Shown: positions 11,157-29,584 of the stretch, in pieces
How positions within the stretch are numbered: the first letter of the stretch is position 1
Layout: every line of letters begins with the position of its first letter
Assembly: GCA_964581145.1 (NCBI GenBank)
Contig: CAZONU010000005.1
Location: 1-32,796, forward strand
From: an uncultured Planctomycetia bacterium
GTDB lineage: Bacteria; Planctomycetota; SZUA-567; JAKLDR01
Length of the DNA stretch: 32,796 nucleotides
Direction: 5' to 3'
Program-made: the position numbers and the translations under genes
Notes under the pieces: model-generated
What the model was told of the DNA's origin: nothing
The model's input: only the letters and a program-made list of their open reading frames with translations
The model's database searches: none

Positions 11157-12160
11157 TGCGTGACCCGGCCAGGAAATCGCCCTCCGGGCGGAAGCCCGCG
11201 CCGGCCCAGCCGGCGATACCGACTACCGGCAACCAGCAACCGGCTGCCGAAGTTCTCATCAGCGCGGCGCGCCAGCGCGCCCGGGGGGTATCGTGGGCGC
11301 TTATCGCGGAAGAGACGCCGTACTCCGAGGGCGATCTTCTTACGTTCGCGTTGGACCACCCCGAGATCTGGGGGCCGCTTTACGCCCGCGCCGAGAAGCT
11401 CAGGTTGCAGGAGACCGCCGGCGGGACCCTCGCGCACCTCACCGCGCTGCTCAAAGGCGACGACAGCGAGGCTTCCGAAAAAGCCGCGAGAGAGCTCTTG
11501 ATTCATCGCAGACACGTGGAACGCCGCAGGCGGGGAGGATGCAGCCGCGCGAAGCCTCGTGATTTGGGATTTCGGAATTCGGAATGCGGAACGGCTCAAT
11601 CCGCAATCCGCGATCCGCAATCCGCAATGGCTGCGGAGGGGACTCCGCAATACCCCGAATGGCTGGTTGAGGAACCCGCTCCCGCGGAACTGGGAAAGCG
11701 TATAACCTACGCTGCCAACCGCGTGGCCCACGGCGAGCCCTACGCCTCCATCGCCGGGGAGGTCGGTCGCGATGCCGAAGACGTCGCTCGCTGGGCGTTC
11801 ATCTATCCCCGGGCCTGGGACCGGGTTTATCCGCAAGCGCGGCTGGCCGCCGCGCAGTTCGCCGCCGCGCTGGCGATCAACAGACTCCTGGACCTCGCCG
11901 CGGGGCCTGACGCCGCTCTCGCCGCCCGCGCGGCCCGGACGCTGCTGGTTCACAGGCGCCACATGCACTGGGCGCGCCTTGATCAACCACAGAGACACAG
12001 AGATTTACCCGCCGTGGCGGGCACCGAGGAAGATGTGAGTCTGGACGCGGCGGGGACCTCCAGCAGGACGGACGTGCTCCTCCGCGACCAGGAGAGAATC
12101 TCTGTGCCTCAGTGCCTCTGTGGTGAAAGCAGTTGTAGAATCCGCGACGGGCCCGGCTAG
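11156..12160 (+). CDS. Hypothetical protein made of two tandem HTH-like modules; contains two translated repeat elements
   Basis: Module 1 is ISAARQRARGVSWALIAEETPYSEGDLLTFALDHPEIWGPLYARAE...ARELLIHRRH. Module 2 is ITYAANRVAHGEPYASIAGEVGRDAEDVARWAFIYPRAWDRVYPQAR...ARTLLVHRRH. The true 3' end is uncertain because the last ~60 codons cross a TIR element. Confidence 0.6.
   Translation: MRDPARKSPSGRKPAPAQPAIPTTGNQQPAAEVLISAARQRARGVSWALIAEETPYSEGDLLTFALDHPEIWGPLYARAEKLRLQETAGGTLAHLTALLKGDDSEASEKAARELLIHRRHVERRRRGGCSRAKPRDLGFRNSECGTAQSAIRDPQSAMAAEGTPQYPEWLVEEPAPAELGKRITYAANRVAHGEPYASIAGEVGRDAEDVARWAFIYPRAWDRVYPQARLAAAQFAAALAINRLLDLAAGPDAALAARAARTLLVHRRHMHWARLDQPQRHRDLPAVAGTEEDVSLDAAGTSSRTDVLLRDQERISVPQCLCGESSCRIRDGPG
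11561..11630. repeat. Heptanucleotide-periodic hairpin, same family as 967-1086, inside the ORF
   Basis: The left arm is gatttgg gatttcg gaattcg gaatgcg ga. The right arm is aatccgc aatccgc gatccgc aatccgc aatgg. By hand this gives about 22 Watson-Crick pairs and 1 G-U out of 29, with a 9-nt loop. Confidence 0.75.
11987..12123. repeat. 137-bp element bounded by imperfect terminal inverted repeats
   Basis: ccacagagacacagagatt (11987-12005) pairs with aatctctgtgcctcagtgcctctgtgg (12097-12123). There is an internal cccgcc gt ggcggg hairpin. Confidence 0.65.
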
Positions 12161-15894: not shown

Positions 15895-15905
15895 GGGCGG
15901 GCTCT

Positions 15906-16184
15906 CCCTAGCAGTCCGTTGAAAAATGGAGCGCCGTGACGGCAGGCGCTCCCGAGCGATGCGAGGCCCGAGGGTGAGCGCGATGCCTCTGGCATCGGGC
16001 GAATCCCGAGAACGAAGCAGCGCGACGGGACCGCCTGCCGCCCTTCGGGTTGGGCCGTAACGGTCCGTCTTCTTCGTCGAGGACCCGAAGACGATGCTTG
16101 GGCATCGACTTCGGGACCTCTCCTCGAATCTGAACCATTCTGTCTCCAATCACGGCCGCCCCATTTTTCAACGGCCTGCTAGGG
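15906..16184. repeat. 279-bp MITE-like palindromic element in the kinase 5' leader
   Basis: Terminal inverted repeats ccctagcagtccgttgaaaaatgg (15906-15929) and ccatttttcaacggcctgctaggg (16161-16184) match at 23 of 24 positions, extending to about 35 bp with one gap. Both arms carry a similar local hairpin (gatgcc tctg gcatc / gatgc ttggg catc). Confidence 0.7.
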
Positions 16185-16235
16185 CCGGTCCGCGGCCGGG
16201 GGCAGCTCCGCGAACATAACCCCCTGTATTTTAAC

Positions 16236-20910: not shown

Positions 20911-22281
20911 ATGAAGATCCGACTCCTGGCCGTCCTGTGTGCATGGGCTTGTCCGGTCCTGTCCGGCGAGAAGGACTTCCCCCAGCCCTACAAGGACGAT
21001 TCCAAGGTTATCGCCAAGCTGAAGGGCGTGGGCGCGCGCACCGGGCTGATGCTCGGCAAGTTCAAGGTGATGCCCGCCGACGCCGGCAAGTATCACAGCA
21101 CTCTGAAGAATGGGCCGGGCGTGCGCAACTTCTGCAACAAGATGGTCTATGCCCCCGACCGGGGTGCGGCCATGTACTGCGGCGCCAATCACGGGGTTCC
21201 CCACCTCTTGAACGACGTTTGGGAGTATCACCTCGGCAGCAACACCTGGCACATGATCTGCCCGCCCGGCAACGACTACCGCGTTTTCAGGAAGCTCCAG
21301 GAACGGGCCAAGAAGGACGCCGCCTTCCGCGAGAAGGAGTTCTCGAAGCGGGCCAGGAAGTGGTGGGAGACCTGTGAGGTGAAGGATGGGTACCTCGGGG
21401 CCAAGAAGAACGGCGGCCCGGTCTTCCCGCGGCACACCTGGGACGGAGTGACCTACGACGAACGCACCAAACAACTCTATTGGGCGGTCCTCGACGGGCC
21501 GTTCCTCAAGAGCAAGACCAAGTGGTACGCCAAGTACACCGGGCGGGACGAGGCCAAGCTCCTCGCCCAGCTCAAGCCGGGTTCGACCATGTACATATAT
21601 GATGACACGAAGAAGCGCTGGCGTCTCCAGCAGAACGAGGGGCCCGCCCCGGTGATGCGCGGCATGGGCGGGACACTGGTCTACCTGCCTGACGTCAGGA
21701 AGACCATCTGGTACGTCTCTGCGACCAACCGCGTGCCCCAGGACCACGCGATGTGGTCCTACGACGCCAAGACCAACAAGTGGGAGCGGCTGATGTCCTC
21801 CAGCAAGGTCCGCAGCCTGGCCATGAAGGCCAAGCCCCAGCAGGCGCCGCGCTCGGAGGTGCAAGCCGCTTACAGCATGAAGCACAAGAAGATCGTCGCG
21901 GTGCAGGCCAAGGGAACCTACATCTACGACGTGACCGCCAACACCTGGAAGCGCGGGGCGGACACCCCCGGCTACGGCCACGACGCCCACAGCGTCTTCG
22001 CCTACGACAGCAACGCCGACGCCTTCCTGCTCTACTCCAAGGCGCACTGGCGCAGGAAGGGCAAGTGGAACGTCTACGCCTACGACCTCGCCAAGGACAA
22101 GTGGGAGACCGTCAAGGTCCAGGGCAAGGCGCCTCCCGACGACACCAAGACCGGCTGGCGCGGCTACGGGTACGCCGGCTACTACGACCCCGGGCACAAC
22201 GCGCTGGTCCTCTACCAGGAAGGCATCGCCCCCGGAATCTACGTCTACCGCCACGCAGCGAAGAAGGAACCATTCCGGTGA
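20911..22281 (+). CDS. Secreted Kelch-type beta-propeller protein
   Basis: GGAGG RBS and signal peptide MKIRLLAVLCAWACPVLSG. Kelch-like units are present (AAMYCGANHGVPHLLNDVWEYHLGSNTWHMI, repeated W-containing blades). Confidence 0.8.
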   Translation: MKIRLLAVLCAWACPVLSGEKDFPQPYKDDSKVIAKLKGVGARTGLMLGKFKVMPADAGKYHSTLKNGPGVRNFCNKMVYAPDRGAAMYCGANHGVPHLLNDVWEYHLGSNTWHMICPPGNDYRVFRKLQERAKKDAAFREKEFSKRARKWWETCEVKDGYLGAKKNGGPVFPRHTWDGVTYDERTKQLYWAVLDGPFLKSKTKWYAKYTGRDEAKLLAQLKPGSTMYIYDDTKKRWRLQQNEGPAPVMRGMGGTLVYLPDVRKTIWYVSATNRVPQDHAMWSYDAKTNKWERLMSSSKVRSLAMKAKPQQAPRSEVQAAYSMKHKKIVAVQAKGTYIYDVTANTWKRGADTPGYGHDAHSVFAYDSNADAFLLYSKAHWRRKGKWNVYAYDLAKDKWETVKVQGKAPPDDTKTGWRGYGYAGYYDPGHNALVLYQEGIAPGIYVYRHAAKKEPFR

Positions 22282-22313
22282 CACCCACCGTTATGAACCA
22301 TTCCGGTGACACC
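22267..22313 (+). repeat. Perfect 19-bp direct repeat duplicating the last codons and stop of the Kelch gene
   Basis: gaaccattccggtgacacc occurs at 22267-22285 and 22295-22313, separated by caccgttat. ccaccgttat recurs at 22468-22477. Confidence 0.9.
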
Positions 22314-22467
22314 GGGCCTGCTGAAAAAGCTTCCGGGGGAGCACCGAACGCGGGAGTTGACGCAGGGCCGCTTTCGTATCCCCCCAATTCGCGCCGGGTG
22401 CAGCGCTGTCCGATTCTGCCCCCTGCTCCAAACACATGCGCACCGGACTTTTTCAACAGCTCCACAG
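22314..22467. repeat. 154-bp insert-like segment with subterminal inverted repeats (ctgctgaaaaag core)
   Basis: cctgctgaaaaagcttccgg (22317-22336) pairs with ccggactttttcaacagc (22443-22460), about 16 of 19 with one gap. The core resembles the TIR of the 15906-16184 element (ccgttgaaaaatgg). Confidence 0.5.
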
Positions 22468-22480
22468 CCACCGTTATTAC

Positions 22481-22509
22481 TTGACTTCCTGTCCCGTTTA
22501 GTGTAAATA
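22481..22509 (+). promoter_or_regulatory. Sigma70-type promoter of the LexA-TnpA-like gene
   Basis: TTGACT (22481-22486), a 17-nt spacer, then TAAATA (22504-22509). Confidence 0.6.
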
Positions 22510-22533
22510 TATACAGTGATGTACGCATTTACA
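22503..22533. promoter_or_regulatory. Nested 31-bp palindrome (candidate operator or hairpin) spanning the -10 box to the RBS
   Basis: TGTAAAT ata TACA gtga TGTA cgc ATTTACA. The outer 7-bp arms and inner 4-bp arms share one symmetry centre at 22518. Confidence 0.55.
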
Positions 22534-22543
22534 GGATGAGCCC

Positions 22544-23194
22544 ATGACCGATGAACTCACCGACCGCCAGCAGCGCGTGCTCCTGGCCATTCGCGATCAC
22601 GCCGTCGAGCACGGCTACCCGCCGACGCTGGCCGAGTTGGGCGAGCGCCTGGGCATCCGCAACCCCAACGGGGTGCGCGGGCACGTTCTGGCCCTGGAGA
22701 GGAAGGGATATCTGGAACGCGCCCGCGGGGCCAGCCGGGGCATCGCCATCCGGGGCTGGACCAGGGTGCTCGACGCGACCCTGGGTCGGCTGCGCGGGCG
22801 GCACCGCTCGGGCGCCGCGGGGGTCCTGGGGCGGGTGACCTACCACTTGGCCTGGGCCACGCGCGGCGCGGAGCCGCTCCTCGCCGGCGAGGCCGCCGGG
22901 GCGCTGGAGGAGTGCATCCGGCAGGTGGCCGCCGAGCACGGCTGGGAGGTGCTCGAAGTCGAGGTCCGCCCGGAGCTGGTGCGCCTGGTCCTGACCGTCG
23001 ACCCGGAGCACTCCGCCGGCGCGGTGGTCAATCACATACGCTGGTACGCGACGCTGCTGCGCTTCGGCAAGCTGCGCGGCCTGGGGGCGGGGCGCGCCTG
23101 GGCGCCCGGCTACGCGGCGGCAGGGAGCGCCGGGGAGCTGGCCGGGCTGATCCCCGCGCTGCTCAAGAGGCGAAGGAAGAGGAAGAGAGGGTAG
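22544..23194 (+). CDS. LexA N-terminal DNA-binding domain fused to an inactivated IS200/IS605 TnpA (Y1/HUH)-like domain
   Basis: Residues 1-70 (LTDRQQRVLLAIRDHAVEHGYPPTLAELGERLGIRNPNGVRGHVLALERKGYLER..GASRGIAI) match the LexA wHTH. Residues ~97-205 (VTYHLAWATRG...AAEHGWEVLEVEVRPELVRLVLTVDPEHSAGAVV...AWAPGYAAAGSAGELAGLIPALL) match the TnpA layout, with the HUH motif and Tyr replaced. A basic tail KRRRKRKRG follows. AGGA RBS lies 7 nt before the ATG. Confidence 0.85.
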   Translation: MTDELTDRQQRVLLAIRDHAVEHGYPPTLAELGERLGIRNPNGVRGHVLALERKGYLERARGASRGIAIRGWTRVLDATLGRLRGRHRSGAAGVLGRVTYHLAWATRGAEPLLAGEAAGALEECIRQVAAEHGWEVLEVEVRPELVRLVLTVDPEHSAGAVVNHIRWYATLLRFGKLRGLGAGRAWAPGYAAAGSAGELAGLIPALLKRRRKRKRG

Positions 23195-23213
23195 GAGGGG
23201 AGGGAGAAGAACG

Positions 23214-24386
23214 ATGAACAAGTTCGGCTCACGGGTCTTCTGGGGTTTCTCACTGCTGGCGGCCGCGGGCCTCGCGGCAATCGGGTGCTACTCTCAGACT
23301 GGGTATTCCGGAGCGGCCAAGGCCGATCCCCGACCGGTCGCAGCCGGGTCCGCCGCCCCCAGGGGCGGAGGTAAACGCGGTGCCCCCGTCAAGGCGCCCA
23401 GGCTCGATGCGGACCGCAGCAAGCGGCTGGTGGTTTACAACGCCTCCCTGTACATGGTCGTCGAGAAGATCGCGGACTCGCTGGAGCGCATTCGCGGCCA
23501 GGCCGCGGCGGCGGGCGGCTACCTCCAGGAGATGGACGCGAGTTCGATCACCGTCAAGGTCCCGGCCGGCAAGTTTCTGGACACCGTCGCCAAGGTCGAG
23601 AAGCTCGGCCAGGTCGTCAAGAGGGAGATCAAAGGAACGGACGAGACCGAGAAGATGCGCGACCTGCGCGCGCGCCTCAAGAACGCCGAAGCGATCCACG
23701 GGCGGCTGCTCAAACTGCTTGACAGGGCCGCCAAGATGGAGGACACCCTCAAGATCGAGAGGGAAATAGAGCGCCTGACCGAGAAGATCGAGCTCTTGAA
23801 GGGCCGGATCCGCTACCTGGAGAACAGCTCGGCCTTCTCGGCGCTGACGGTGCATCTCAACTCTCCCCTTCCGCAGAAGCGGATCGCCACGGAAATACCG
23901 TTCCCCTGGGTGCTGCGCCTGGGGGCCGACCTGACCCACGGCAGAGCCACCGAGACCTTCTACGGCGGCAGGGGCCGGCGGCGGGGCGTCAGGTTCGTCC
24001 TGCCCAAGGCCTACATCAAGTACTACGAGAGGGACCACGTCGTCCGGGCCATGTCCGCGGACGGCGTACTGCTGCGCCTCCAGCGGCACGGGAACTACGA
24101 GGGCGGGAAAGCGGAGTTCTGGTCCCGCTTGATCCGGCGGGTGCTCGTCGAGCGTCGGGCCTTCGCCCTGCGGCCCGAGGCGAAACTGAGGCTCCAGACC
24201 GGGGCCGAGGCCCGCGTGCAGGCCGGCAGCAAGGAGATCGGCGGAAAGGACTACGGCTACCTCATCGCGGTGGTCGCCGAGAAACACTACGTCTACACCT
24301 TCGAGGCCTGGGGGCCGCGGGCCGGACTCACCGCGGACCGCAAGAAGATAGAGGAGGCCGTCCGCTCGCTGCGGATCAGGCCGTAG
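23214..24386 (+). CDS. DUF4349-type lipoprotein with an extra C-terminal domain
   Basis: It has a lipobox (LAAAGLAAIGC). The DUF4349-like core is LVVYNASLYMVVEKIADSLERIRGQAAAAGGYLQEMDASSITVKVPAGKFLDTVAKVEKLG...coiled coil...SAFSALTVHL. The start lies 19 nt after the upstream stop, preceded by GGAGGGGAGGGAG. Confidence 0.8.
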   Translation: MNKFGSRVFWGFSLLAAAGLAAIGCYSQTGYSGAAKADPRPVAAGSAAPRGGGKRGAPVKAPRLDADRSKRLVVYNASLYMVVEKIADSLERIRGQAAAAGGYLQEMDASSITVKVPAGKFLDTVAKVEKLGQVVKREIKGTDETEKMRDLRARLKNAEAIHGRLLKLLDRAAKMEDTLKIEREIERLTEKIELLKGRIRYLENSSAFSALTVHLNSPLPQKRIATEIPFPWVLRLGADLTHGRATETFYGGRGRRRGVRFVLPKAYIKYYERDHVVRAMSADGVLLRLQRHGNYEGGKAEFWSRLIRRVLVERRAFALRPEAKLRLQTGAEARVQAGSKEIGGKDYGYLIAVVAEKHYVYTFEAWGPRAGLTADRKKIEEAVRSLRIRP

Positions 24387-24391
24387 GCGGC

Positions 24392-25360
24392 CTACTCCTT
24401 CGTCCAGATGCGGGTGTTGAGGTCCAGGTCCTGGACGATGCCCAGAGCCAGGGTCAGGTCCAGGTAGTACTCCCGGATCATGTGGAAGTCGAGCAGGCTG
24501 CGAAAGAACCGCGGCTCGAGCATGTTCCGCCTCAGGGGCACGGCCACGTTCACCCGGGCGTTCGCGAAGGAGACGAGGATCCGGTCGCCGGTCTCGGGCC
24601 GCTCGCGGAACTCCACCAGGCGCCGCATCAGGCTGGGGGTCAGGATGTAGCGGGCCTCAACTTGATCGTCGGCGTAGACCGCGAAGTACTTCTCGAAGTC
24701 GGGGTCCTCCAGCTTGACCAGCTCGCCCGTGCGCATGAAGTTCCTGTTCTGAAGCAGCCTGCCCAGCCAGCCGCCGAACGCTCGCTCGGCGAGGTCGGGA
24801 ACCACCACGGTGGTGCCCTTGAACTTCTTGTTGAACTCCGCAGTGAGGAAGAGTCCCTTGAACAGGGGGCGGTATCCGCTTCCACTCTCGCTGTTTCGGG
24901 TTTCGTGCCCGGCGTGGACCTCGGAGAACCGGACCTTGGTCTTCCCAAGCCTGCCGCTGACGAAGTCCTCGCCCCGGTAGCGGTCGACGCTGTACTCGAA
25001 GAGGTGGCTGGCGCTGAATTGTCTCCGGGGCACGCAGCCCCTCGCGCGGTAGTACAGCTTCGGGTTGATGAACTCCACCACGCGGCGCACCACCTCGTCC
25101 TTGAAGCCCCGCTTGTAGCCGCGCAGTGAGAGACCGCCGACGATGGCCACTACCGAGTGAGCGGCAAACAGCACGCCGATGACGCCGAAGAACCCCAGGC
25201 GATCGGCGAGGAGCAGCAGGGCAGTCGCGGACAGGGCCAGCATGATCACGGCGGCGATGCCGATGCGCAGCAGCGTCTTCTTGCGCTGCCGTTCGAAGGG
25301 CCCTATCGCGGAGACCAGTTCCCGGTCGTAGAACTCCCTGAACTCGGCCAGAGTCTTCAC
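24392..25360 (-). CDS. DUF3137 family membrane protein (paralog 1)
   Basis: GTG start at 25360 with GGAGG upstream. It has two TM helices, then FKDEVVRRVVEFINP...DRYRGEDFVSGRLGKTKVRFSEVHA...FKGLFLTAEFNKKFKGTTVVVPD...LEDPDFEKYFAVYADDQVEARYILTPSLM...LDLNTRIWTK. Confidence 0.8.
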   Translation of the reverse strand: MKTLAEFREFYDRELVSAIGPFERQRKKTLLRIGIAAVIMLALSATALLLLADRLGFFGVIGVLFAAHSVVAIVGGLSLRGYKRGFKDEVVRRVVEFINPKLYYRARGCVPRRQFSASHLFEYSVDRYRGEDFVSGRLGKTKVRFSEVHAGHETRNSESGSGYRPLFKGLFLTAEFNKKFKGTTVVVPDLAERAFGGWLGRLLQNRNFMRTGELVKLEDPDFEKYFAVYADDQVEARYILTPSLMRRLVEFRERPETGDRILVSFANARVNVAVPLRRNMLEPRFFRSLLDFHMIREYYLDLTLALGIVQDLDLNTRIWTKE

Positions 25361-25379
25361 GGCGCTCGGCCCTCCGGCC

Positions 25380-26354
25380 TCAGTCCTTCGTCCAGATCCG
25401 GGTGTTGAGGTCCAGATCCTGGACGATGCCCGCGGCCAGGGTCAGGTCCAGGTAGTACTCCCGGACCACCGCGAAGTCCAGCAGCGTGCCGAAGTAGCGC
25501 GGCTCGAACAGGTCCCGCTCCAGGGGCACGGCCACGTGCACCCGGGAGTGCGCAAAGGATATGAAAACCCGGTCGCCGGTCTCGGGCCGCTCGCGGAACT
25601 CGACCAGGCGCTCCATCAGGCTGGGGGTCAGGATGTAGCGGGCCTCGACCTGATCGTCGGCGTAGACCGCGAAGCGCCTCTCGAACGCCGGGTCCTCCAG
25701 CTTGACCAGCTCGCCCGTGCGCGTGAAGTTCATGCTCTGGAGCAGCCGGCCCAGCCAGCCGCCCAGCACCCGCTCGGCGACGTCGGGGGCCACTACGGTC
25801 GTGCCGCTGAACTCCTTGTTGAAGTCCGCGGTGAAGAAGAGTCCCTTGAAGAGCGTGTTCCACTGGCTCTTGCTGCCCTTGCCGCTGCTGCTGCTCTTGT
25901 ACTGGGCGTGGACCTCGGAGAAGCGGACCTCGGTGCCGCCCAGCCGGCCCTCCACGGAGTCCTCCCCGCGGTAGCGGTCGATGCGGTGCTCGAAGAGCCG
26001 GCTGGCGCGGAAGACGCTCTCGGGCACGCGGCCGGCGGGGCTGTAGCTCAAGCCCGGGTCGAGGAACCTCACCACCCGGCCGATCACCTCGCGCTTGAAG
26101 CCCCGCTTGTAGCCGCGCAGCGACAGGTAGGCCACCAGCACCACCACCGCGCCGCTGACGGCCAGCACAATGATGACCCCTATGGGACCGAAGCCCGCGA
26201 CCCCGAAGGCCAGGGCGGCGGCGGCGAAGACCAGCATGACCGCCGCGGCGATGCCGGTGCGCACGAGCGCCCTCTTGCGCTGGCGTTCGAAGGGTTTGAT
26301 GGCGGGGACCAGCTCCCGCTCGTAGAAGTCGCGCAGCTCGGCGAGGGTCTTCAC
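25380..26354 (-). CDS. DUF3137 family membrane protein (paralog 2)
   Basis: GTG start at 26354. It has the same motif series as paralog 1 and long identical nucleotide runs with it. Confidence 0.8.
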   Translation of the reverse strand: MKTLAELRDFYERELVPAIKPFERQRKRALVRTGIAAAVMLVFAAAALAFGVAGFGPIGVIIVLAVSGAVVVLVAYLSLRGYKRGFKREVIGRVVRFLDPGLSYSPAGRVPESVFRASRLFEHRIDRYRGEDSVEGRLGGTEVRFSEVHAQYKSSSSGKGSKSQWNTLFKGLFFTADFNKEFSGTTVVAPDVAERVLGGWLGRLLQSMNFTRTGELVKLEDPAFERRFAVYADDQVEARYILTPSLMERLVEFRERPETGDRVFISFAHSRVHVAVPLERDLFEPRYFGTLLDFAVVREYYLDLTLAAGIVQDLDLNTRIWTKD

Positions 26355-26363
26355 TGCCGCGGA

Positions 26364-26933
26364 TTAGCTCTCGAACATGTCCCCGACGTCGGGCCGCTCG
26401 CGCTCGGCCGCCTCGACTTCGAACAGCGTCCGGCGGCGGTAGCTCATCATCCCCGCGACCAGGTTGGTGGGGAACATCTCCACGGCGTTGTTGAAGTCGG
26501 TGACCGCGGCGTTGTAGGTGCGCCGCGCGGCGGCCAGCTGGGCCTCGACCTCGTTGAGCGCGCGCTGCAGCTGCATGAAGTTCTCGTTGGCCTTGAGCTC
26601 GGGGTAGTCCTCCACCTGGACCATCAGCCCGCGGAGCAGGCCGCCGATCTGGTCGCTGAGGCGGATCTGCTCGTCGCCGCCGGTGGCCGGGTCCACCGCC
26701 CTGGCGCGCAGCTGGGCGATTTTGGTAAGGGTCTCGGACTCATGCTTCATGTAGTTCTTGACGGTGCTGACCAGGTTGGGGATCAGGTCGTAGCGCTTCT
26801 TGAGCATCACGTCGATGGTCGCAAAGGCCTGCTCTACGAGGTTCTTCTTGCCGATCAGGCTGTTGTAGATCACGATGAGTACAATGAGCACCAGGCCCAG
26901 GACCGCCCCGGCGCCGATAAGGACTGGCAGCAT
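26364..26933 (-). CDS. lemA: LemA family protein
   Basis: The start is moved to ATG 26933, which has a GGAGGAG RBS. An N-terminal TM helix is followed by IYNSLIGKKNLVEQAFATIDVMLKKRYDLIPNLV...ENFMQLQRALNEVEAQLAAARRTYNAAVTDFNNAVEMFPTNLVA, the LemA signature. Confidence 0.9.
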   Translation of the reverse strand: MLPVLIGAGAVLGLVLIVLIVIYNSLIGKKNLVEQAFATIDVMLKKRYDLIPNLVSTVKNYMKHESETLTKIAQLRARAVDPATGGDEQIRLSDQIGGLLRGLMVQVEDYPELKANENFMQLQRALNEVEAQLAAARRTYNAAVTDFNNAVEMFPTNLVAGMMSYRRRTLFEVEAAERERPDVGDMFES

Positions 26934-27163
26934 CTTCGCTCCTCCTTCCGGGCTCCGCGAACCCCGCCCCGACCCGGGCGGACCGCGCGGCCTCCCTGAT
27001 ATAGGATACCGCCGAAGACCGGCCGGGTCCAATTACAAAAGAGGGCCTTTTTTGGAAGGGCGCCCCCACAGCCGAATAACCGGCTAAAGGGCGCCGTCGC
27101 TTATTCGTTGTACCGGGGGGAGGCCCGCCGGTTTATAATGGAGCGGGGGAGGAGGAGTGCGCC

Positions 27164-29506: not shown

Positions 29507-29584
29507 CGGGGCGTAGCTCAGCCTGGCTAGAGCGCGTGGTTTGGGTCCACGAGGTCGCTGGTTCAAATCCAGTCGCCCCGACCA
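29507..29584 (+). tRNA. tRNA-Pro (anticodon UGG), CCA encoded
   Basis: Folded by hand. The acceptor stem is CGGGGCG/CGCCCCG, the D stem GCTC/GAGC and the anticodon stem CGTGG/CCACG. The anticodon loop is TT-TGG-GT (G37), the variable loop is 5 nt, the T stem is GCTGG/CCAGT and the T loop TTCAAAT. The discriminator is A, followed by CCA. Confidence 0.95.

Follow-up and report, generated by a model that had tools for sequence, protein, structure and literature searches.

Within a 32,796-nucleotide stretch of DNA from an uncultured Planctomycetia bacterium (GenBank assembly GCA_964581145.1, contig CAZONU010000005.1, positions 1 to 32,796 of the forward strand; hereafter the window), a gene at 22544-23194 (+ strand) encodes a protein of 216 amino acids (aa) in which a LexA-type winged helix-turn-helix (wHTH) domain is joined to a catalytically dead IS200/IS605 TnpA-like (Y1 HUH) domain, standing in the place of the S24 peptidase domain. 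We think it probable that this protein acts as a chromosomal, autoregulated, non-cleavable local repressor composed of the LexA wHTH, a conserved basic linker helix and an exapted, dead TnpA domain. It belongs to an apparently undescribed and sizeable family in Planctomycetota, which is a new transcription-factor family arisen by exaptation of a transposase catalytic domain and not a categorically new mechanism.

Domain architecture

The gene is supported by its open reading frame (ORF), by Pfam and PDB searches, by recurrence in a family and by its coding signal, and both the ORF and its translation are as quoted in an earlier note on this DNA, made by a model from the letters alone. The LexA-type N-terminus proposed there is borne out by Pfam, PDB sequence and Foldseek searches: aa 4-66 (22553-22741, + strand) match LexA_DNA_bind (PF01726) with 74.7 bits (E 5.1e-21, cutoff 23.7) and the N-terminal domain (NTD) of E. 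coli LexA (1lea) at E 2.4e-15, with 52% identity over 65 aa, and contain the recognition helix N40-P-N-G-V-R-G-H47. The NCBIfam LexA model TIGR00498 reaches 65.8 bits, under its equivalog cutoff of 110.95, with a match confined to aa 4-72, and Peptidase_S24 (PF00717) gives no Pfam match in the 216-aa protein even at E<=10, as the note had supposed. Its statement that no Ala-Gly hinge is present has to be corrected: there is an A92-G93 dipeptide in the linker, though it is not conserved in the family (the main clade has E-G at the same position) and is not accompanied by a protease domain. Because there is neither an S24 Ser/Lys peptidase domain nor a functional Ala-Gly site, RecA-stimulated self-cleavage is impossible; the protein is not a LexA and cannot be a self-cleaving one, and the non-cleavable character claimed for it stands.

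An Arg/Gly-rich linker (aa 67-96, 22742-22831, + strand) follows, with a predicted helix at aa 74-87. In the AlphaFold2 (AF2) model, a monomer built from an alignment of 121 homologues, the mean predicted local distance difference test score (pLDDT) is 81. The linker helix scores 46-54 (low model confidence), yet it is strongly conserved by the ratio of nonsynonymous to synonymous substitution (dN/dS) given below, and the main-clade linker carries a conserved S-R-x-K-R-K-L-H-E-x-x-R-T-D-E-G-V motif.

The remainder of the protein (aa 97-205, 22832-23158, + strand; pLDDT 90-97) is the Y1-like domain. Y1_Tnp (PF01797) matches aa 98-193 with 37.8 bits (E 2.5e-9, curated cutoff 23), and a PDB sequence search aligns the C-terminus with the Deinococcus ISDra2 TnpA (2xo6/2xm3; E 4e-11 to 7e-11). 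Identity to IS200/IS605 TnpA is 24-25%, and the TnpA structural motifs Y-H-L-x-W, P-x-H-S and W-x-x-G-Y are kept. All of the top 29 PDB matches that Foldseek returns for the AF2 model are IS200/IS605 TnpA, with template modelling (TM) scores of 0.6-0.79 against such structures and a best match to 2fyx_A (E 9e-9, TM 0.79, root-mean-square deviation (rmsd) 3.5 Å over 126 columns). The LexA NTDs rank after these, the wHTH superposing on 1lea, 1jhh and 3jso with an rmsd of ~2 Å, and the REP-associated transposase 4er8 is much weaker (E 1e-3, TM 0.46). The likeness to Y1 transposases that had been read from the order of conserved segments is thus confirmed, with ISDra2, IS200 and IS608 TnpA as its structural counterparts.

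Loss of the catalytic residues

In the HMMER alignment the ISDra2 segment 'MPDHVHLLLSATPQQA' is aligned to 'RPELVRLVLTVDPEHS', and PDHVHLL of ISDra2 reads PELVRLV here. Both HUH histidines are gone, L145 and R147 taking their positions, and the remnant E144-L-V-R-L-V149 (22973-22990, + strand) replaces D-H-V-H-L-L. Column counts from the 121-sequence family alignment place this loss in a wider setting. The second HUH histidine is found in 0/121 members (V in 77, I in 21, A in 7, R in 6, L in 5 and T in 2), and the first is kept in 109/121, the window protein having Leu. The column aligned to the catalytic tyrosine holds L in 94, F in 16 and M in 7 sequences and Tyr in 0/121, and no Tyr is present in the C-terminal helix of the window protein (columns 196-210), the register of this helix being placed by eye, with the HMMER alignments ending at aa ~192. 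Two genuine IS200 TnpAs found by the same patterns (L028 and L029) keep PDHVHLF and the Y..HQ motif and serve as positive controls. The replacement of both histidines and the tyrosine in the window protein was recognized in the earlier note, and its conclusion that an active transposase is ruled out now extends to the family.

The degree of decay differs within the family. In the main clade the D-H of the HUH motif is still present, as are many polar residues near the old active site. The sub-clade of the window protein (P0001-P0003) is small and branches deeply; it shares ~35% identity with the main clade, and its old active site is further decayed, without the first HUH histidine or the W-P-N-H-S and T-T motifs that the main clade conserves.

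A recurrent family under purifying selection

The earlier note treated the protein as a singular oddity, and in this it was mistaken. While a word-indexed search returned four proteins only with the LexA-Y1 architecture, an exhaustive HMMER search of 1.84 billion representatives gave ~20 full-length-matching clusters at 50% identity, and a profile search gave at least 373 clusters at 90% identity (E<=1e-20), among which the window protein is one divergent member. Nearly all of these clusters are 210-235 aa long, with both PF01726 and PF01797. The named sources are metagenome-assembled genomes (MAGs) of Planctomycetota (Phycisphaerae, Sedimentisphaerales), and the labels given in databases are either unspecific or mistaken ('LexA family protein', 'transposase', 'REP element-mobilizing transposase RayT'). 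A GTDB scan, made on one genome per species with a pattern from the main-clade alignment (A4), found 17 loci, 15 in titled Planctomycetota lineages and 2 in titled Deltaproteobacteria MAGs; with the C-terminal alignment of the window sub-clade (A3), the GTDB scan gave 136 pattern matches, 0 of them confirmed. A metagenome scan with A3 added one further member (L030), together with the active TnpAs L028 and L029.

Members in MAGs titled Deltaproteobacteria (L023 and L025; DeMMO6_18 and Olavius-associated Delta 1), one of which adjoins a radical-SAM/HMPTM gene, may have been transferred horizontally along with the lipid cluster described below, or may have been mis-binned.

Third codon positions have a G+C content (GC3) of 0.89-0.96 in each of the three ORF segments, so that a single frame is coding throughout. 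Against the 82%-identical relative L001, dN/dS is 0.35 overall and 0.33, 0.08 and 0.43 in the wHTH, linker and Y1 domain, respectively, ratios that indicate purifying selection on all three segments, with the linker the most conserved. An assembly chimera or frameshift that fused two unrelated ORFs, an artefact for which the low-complexity, Arg/Gly-rich linker gave only a prior possibility, has in our view a negligible probability: the same two-domain ORF, with the same linker, recurs in hundreds of independent JGI, ENA, NCBI and Logan assemblies, and that linker is the very segment most conserved against L001. Recurrence and GC3 alike show the ORF to be real, with one coding frame.

The same observations bear on the view of the gene as an IS200/IS605 transposase, decaying or unusual, with an N-terminal HTH, either a pseudogene or still mobile. 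Some members are indeed labelled 'transposase' or 'RayT' in databases, and the window protein scores 45.4 bits with the NCBIfam IS200 model (NF033573). This score is under the model's cutoff of 55, however, and a second HUH histidine and a tyrosine that are missing from every aligned member, a dN/dS of 0.35, single copy, conserved neighbours and the lack of TnpB and of end hairpins are set against the PDHVHLF and Y...Q motifs that the genuine TnpAs retain. We hold this explanation to be highly improbable, and for practical purposes the transposase or pseudogene reading was rejected on the family-wide dead site, the selection, the single copy and the conserved neighbours. Taken together, the coding signal, the recurrence, the column counts and dN/dS exclude chimera, frameshift, pseudogene and active transposase.

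We note in passing that many short proteins (e.g. P0024, P0029, P0033, P0050) carry two tandem LexA_DNA_bind domains without S24, some with long unrelated tails; this is another route to a 'dimeric' LexA head without a protease domain.

Predicted operators and promoter

Two palindromes of 14 bp stand directly upstream of the ATG. Both were found by motif search: putative operator box 1 (TGTAAATATATACA, a TGTA-N6-TACA palindrome) at 22502-22515, and putative operator box 2 (TGTACGCATTTACA) at 22520-22533, which lies 18 bp past box 1 within the 5' leader and abuts the AGGA Shine-Dalgarno. These two boxes at one promoter compare with ~1.4 TGT-N8-ACA matches expected in the whole 32.8-kb window. 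The E. coli SOS-box consensus, CTGTATATATATACAG, has TGTA-N6-TACA as its core. Box 1 overlaps the -10 of a candidate sigma70-type promoter (22481-22509, + strand), with -35 TTGACT at 22481-22486, a 17-nt spacer and a weak -10 TAAATA at 22504-22509. This promoter is assigned by comparison only: TTGAC[AGT]-17 nt-(TATAGT, TACAAT or TACACT) is seen again ahead of relatives in L002, L003, L004 and L009, and the boxes are located within or just past this shared layout.

The motif is confined to the family's own promoters. In the window pooled with 27 related loci (350,462 bases), strict TGTA-N6-TACA occurs in 20 copies, 20/20 of them 24-56 nt upstream of a family start codon, and 0 times elsewhere. 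Tandem boxes are also present in L002, L003, L004, L008, L009, L011 and L030, and perfect CTGT-N8-ACAG boxes in L012, L013, L015 and L024.

Operator type varies with the recognition helix. Members with N-x-N at the start of this helix (N40-P-N42 here, N41 in the LexA of E. coli) carry TGT..ACA boxes in 14/17 loci, and N-x-S members have them in 0/6, with TAGTAT/GGTATA-type repeats at the same position instead, an association that is inflated by relatedness among the sequences. Such covariation is the pattern expected if the wHTH reads the boxes, and the N-to-S change in the recognition helix may be a natural specificity switch.

The N-x-S loci (L006, L017, L018, L021, L026 and L027) share an N-[VI]-S-A-V-R-G-H helix and have direct or inverted repeats within 100 nt upstream. 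Their TAGTAT/GGTATA repeats are reminiscent of the Xanthomonas-type LexA box, TTAGTA..TACTAA.

The protein might instead be an antagonist or shadow of canonical LexA, sharing its box at promoters of the true SOS regulon and either competing for the boxes or adding damage-insensitive repression there. Its NTD is 49-52% identical to canonical LexA NTDs, that of a planctomycete LexA (P0005, Novipirellula) included, and its boxes fit the CTGT-N8-ACAG class, which is gamma-proteobacterial and may not be the Planctomycetota LexA box. However, the covariation of operator type with the family's own recognition helix points to self-recognition and not to a separate LexA, and canonical lexA is present in none of the fetched loci; we therefore regard such a role as quite improbable.

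Gene neighbourhood

The regulator gene is followed, after a gap of 20 nt, by a gene for a predicted lipoprotein of 390 aa (23214-24386, + strand) with a DUF4349 domain (PF14257, E 3.5e-35) and a lipobox in its N-terminus (...LAAIGC); from their arrangement, the two are probably co-transcribed. The pair is repeated in L001. In every related locus the regulator comes first and is co-directional with its neighbour, the gap being -4 to ~100 nt in most and 276 nt in L019. What lies downstream varies: VIT-VWA proteins in 5 loci, DUF2339 membrane proteins in 2-3, secreted beta-helix proteins in 2, a radical-S-adenosylmethionine (SAM) enzyme in 1, and, in 9 loci, a lipid cluster with a FabA/FabZ-like dehydratase, two ketosynthases (KS), an acyl carrier protein, a ketoreductase and several radical-SAM enzymes.

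These lipid clusters (L006 10661-20639, L009 5795-15777, and also L011, L016, L017, L021, L022, L026 and L027) comprise a FabA/ApeI-like dehydratase, the two ketosynthases and the acyl carrier protein, a ketoreductase of the short-chain dehydrogenase/reductase type, a second FabA-like dehydratase and a rhodanese, together with three or four radical-SAM enzymes, some of which have an HMPTM zinc ribbon. In a neighbour-joining tree the FabZ-KS context is scattered over the main clade, of which the DUF4349-linked clade of the window is a deep sister, and this spread suggests that the association of FabZ-KS with the family is old. The clusters resemble those of Kuenenia and Desulfotalea, in which genes of type II fatty acid synthesis (FASII) and radical-SAM enzymes have been proposed to make polyunsaturated hydrocarbon or ladderane lipids (PMC2649909). 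No regulator is listed for clusters of that type, and no FabR/FadR-type regulator is known for them (PMC2649909). The family would thus seem to consist of local regulators of envelope and lipid genes, and not of an SOS master regulator.

The window is ordinary chromosome, with genes for a Ser/Thr kinase, a GntR-PBP regulator, Kelch and NHL beta-propellers and GH123, as well as tandem DUF3137 genes, LemA, an ABC-2 transporter and a tRNA. It holds no mobile-element genes, and neither TnpB nor IS ends were seen in it or in the 27 related loci. By tblastn there is no second family copy and no canonical lexA in the window or the fetched loci, and in the window and those related loci that were examined no recA, uvr, imu or din gene was seen. 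An origin from a phage or plasmid was rejected, with no match covering >=80% of the query among 72,556 plasmids or 50,697 phages, and PADLOC gave no defence-system match for the regulator. A locus with an 85%-identical relative of the ABC ATPase (L031) shows no synteny with the window and has no LexA-Y1 gene within 10 kb.

These surroundings are informative on a role that builds on a suggestion in the earlier note, that of a non-cleavable SOS-type repressor whose ex-transposase domain senses single-stranded DNA (ssDNA) or hairpins directly, without RecA, on DNA damage or replication stress. Such sensing would suit an operator core that equals the gamma-proteobacterial SOS box, with perfect CTGT-N8-ACAG in the four loci named above; it would suit a fold nearest to the TnpAs of ISDra2 and IS608, which bind ssDNA hairpins, and the D-H and many polar residues kept around the old active site in the main clade. 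The window member, however, is without even a residual histidine, the regulator has no repair or mutagenesis gene beside it, either in the window or in those related loci that were examined, the downstream genes are of envelope or lipid function, and the strict motif is restricted to the regulators' own promoters in 350 kb. The window had also been described as unusually rich in hairpin repeats, and in part this holds: perfect hairpins with a stem of >=9 bp number 14 raw and 9 distinct, a modest enrichment over the 2.7 +/- 1.9 found in shuffles. Each is a GC-rich sequence of its own, unrelated to the others, and no repeated hairpin family resembling repetitive extragenic palindromic (REP) elements was found in the window. 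The suggestion of direct sensing, and the SOS flavour that went with it, are not upheld by these findings, and we consider them decidedly unlikely.

A proposed model of local autoregulation

In the local, autoregulated repressor that we favour, two LexA-type heads would read the tandem palindromes at their own promoter, the wHTH binding both boxes at 22502-22533, over the -10 and the leader. Binding there would repress the regulator gene itself and, with it, the gene for the DUF4349 lipoprotein that follows after 20 nt. Dimerisation would pass from S24 to the dead TnpA domain. IS200/IS605 TnpAs are obligate dimers, in which the C-terminal helix reaches into the partner, as the IS608 and ISDra2 structures show, and the family keeps this helix, with a conserved L-x-x-L-D-E-L-V-x-x-L-L pattern. 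Since palindromes need a dimer, S24 is gone, TnpAs are obligate dimers and the helix is kept, a dimerisation module is the simplest role that the domain may be given. The earlier note had proposed the same role, which fits the palindromic operators and remains at the level of inference. With no S24 protease, the repressor could not leave its DNA by RecA-stimulated self-cleavage. Derepression would most plausibly come about when the ex-transposase domain senses some ligand or partner, much as in Lrp/AsnC regulators with their ferredoxin-like RAM domain; or else the circuit would serve simple homeostatic autoregulation.

Several points weigh against this proposal. A sigma70 consensus scanner calls no promoter in 22200-24600, the candidate at 22481-22509 being passed over because its -10 is without the final T. 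The operator is an E. coli-type SOS-box core, and a canonical LexA might control it or compete for it. For the window member it is doubtful that the old active site holds a conserved ligand pocket, because its sub-clade has lost the first HUH histidine and the W-P-N-H-S and T-T motifs. Finally, binding, dimerisation and repression are all inferred.

A bolder combination of two claims can also be entertained, namely that the dead TnpA domain works as a sensor, whether of structured single-stranded nucleic acid or of a small molecule at the old active centre, and that the main clade supplies the missing dedicated regulator of anaerobic FASII/radical-SAM lipid clusters. We think it unlikely that both hold. 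Were the sensor claim true, it would mean RecA-independent and cleavage-independent switching of a LexA-type repressor.

Relation to known systems

Among known regulators, LexA is the obvious comparison. The two share the N-terminal wHTH, a length of ~200 aa, a flexible linker, the palindromic operator core TGTA-N6-TACA and two tandem boxes at the gene's own promoter, as in E. coli lexA, binding being predicted here. The family member differs in having no S24 Ser/Lys peptidase and no functional Ala-Gly site, no SOS genes seen nearby, and a dimerisation domain of unrelated origin. With the TnpAs of ISDra2, IS608 and the IS200 of S. tokodaii it shares a fold, including the C-terminal helix that bears the tyrosine in TnpA; unlike them, it is a single-copy, wHTH-fused host gene under purifying selection, without HUH, tyrosine, IS ends or TnpB.

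The REP-associated tyrosine transposases (RAYTs, or TnpA_REP; 4er8) are, like this family, host-retained, single-copy relatives of IS200 TnpA. RAYTs, however, keep HUH and the tyrosine and act on flanking REP hairpins, whereas the regulator has neither catalytic feature and no REPs. It is neither an IS200/IS605 transposase nor a RAYT, because it lacks HUH, tyrosine, element ends and REPs, and the 'RayT' label that JGI has put on family members is a mis-annotation on the same grounds and in view of the weaker structural likeness to 4er8. The Lrp/AsnC (FFRP) regulators offer a functional analogy only: they too are small, autoregulated proteins with a wHTH, a linker and a beta-alpha-beta-beta-alpha-beta domain, and Foldseek returns a weak echo of 2ia0. 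In Lrp/AsnC the C-terminal RAM domain serves oligomerisation and ligand sensing. There is no sequence relationship between the two, and the C-terminal domain here is transposase-derived, not RAM/ACT.

To our knowledge, few cases of a bacterial transposase turned host regulator are documented, RAYTs staying catalytic and TldR deriving from TnpB. TldR is a precedent in that an inactivated IS200/IS605-encoded protein was exapted as a bacterial transcription repressor (PMC10705468); it is TnpB-derived and RNA-guided, whereas the present regulator is TnpA-derived. Domain replacement in LexA-like repressors has its precedent in the non-canonical LexA of Bacteroidetes (PMC8565304), where the swap is the opposite one, S24 being kept and the DNA-binding head replaced. 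The earlier note did not recognize the architecture of this protein as described, and we likewise found no description of a LexA-Y1 fusion or of an inactivated Y1 class in open-access papers and bioRxiv; a 2018 phylogenomic survey of Y1 HUH proteins mentions no LexA fusion and no inactive class (PMC6006769).

The family shows that the DNA-reading head of LexA can be uncoupled from the RecA/self-cleavage logic and joined to another effector domain, here a disabled IS200/IS605 TnpA core that serves as the C-terminal module of LexA-type proteins in hundreds of Planctomycetota lineages, the window offering one divergent case beside a gene of DUF4349 type. The predicted operator TGTA-N6-TACA and the putative specificity-switch residue make the family directly testable. 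It also offers lipid and envelope operons of Phycisphaerae and their relatives, which are poorly understood, a candidate regulator, and flags a systematic mis-annotation of LexA-Y1 proteins as 'transposase' or 'RayT'.

Other features of the window

Directly downstream of the LemA gene, and convergent with the DUF4349 gene, are two tandem paralogous DUF3137 genes (24392-26354, - strand, with 26364-27032), which are 73-87% identical in nucleotide sequence at an offset of ~990 nt. A composite repeat is present in two copies (965-1090 and 11562-11680), each made up of ATTTCGGATTTCGGA(C/A)TT(G/C)GGA..GCTCAA followed by several CCGCAATCC units, with a core that is 82% identical; this may be a small dispersed repeat, or else an element with a regulatory function. 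An inverted repeat of 37 nt (15897-15933 and 16157-16193; CTAGCAG(T/G)CCGTTGAAAAATGG(A/G)GCG) has arms that are 84% complementary and ~220 nt apart, the inner arm lying inside the 5' end of the ORF as listed for a Ser/Thr kinase of 1,325 aa (ORF end 16149), with the outer arm immediately upstream. A single tRNA gene at 29507-29581 (+ strand; RF00005, 63 bits) is the sole Rfam match in the window.

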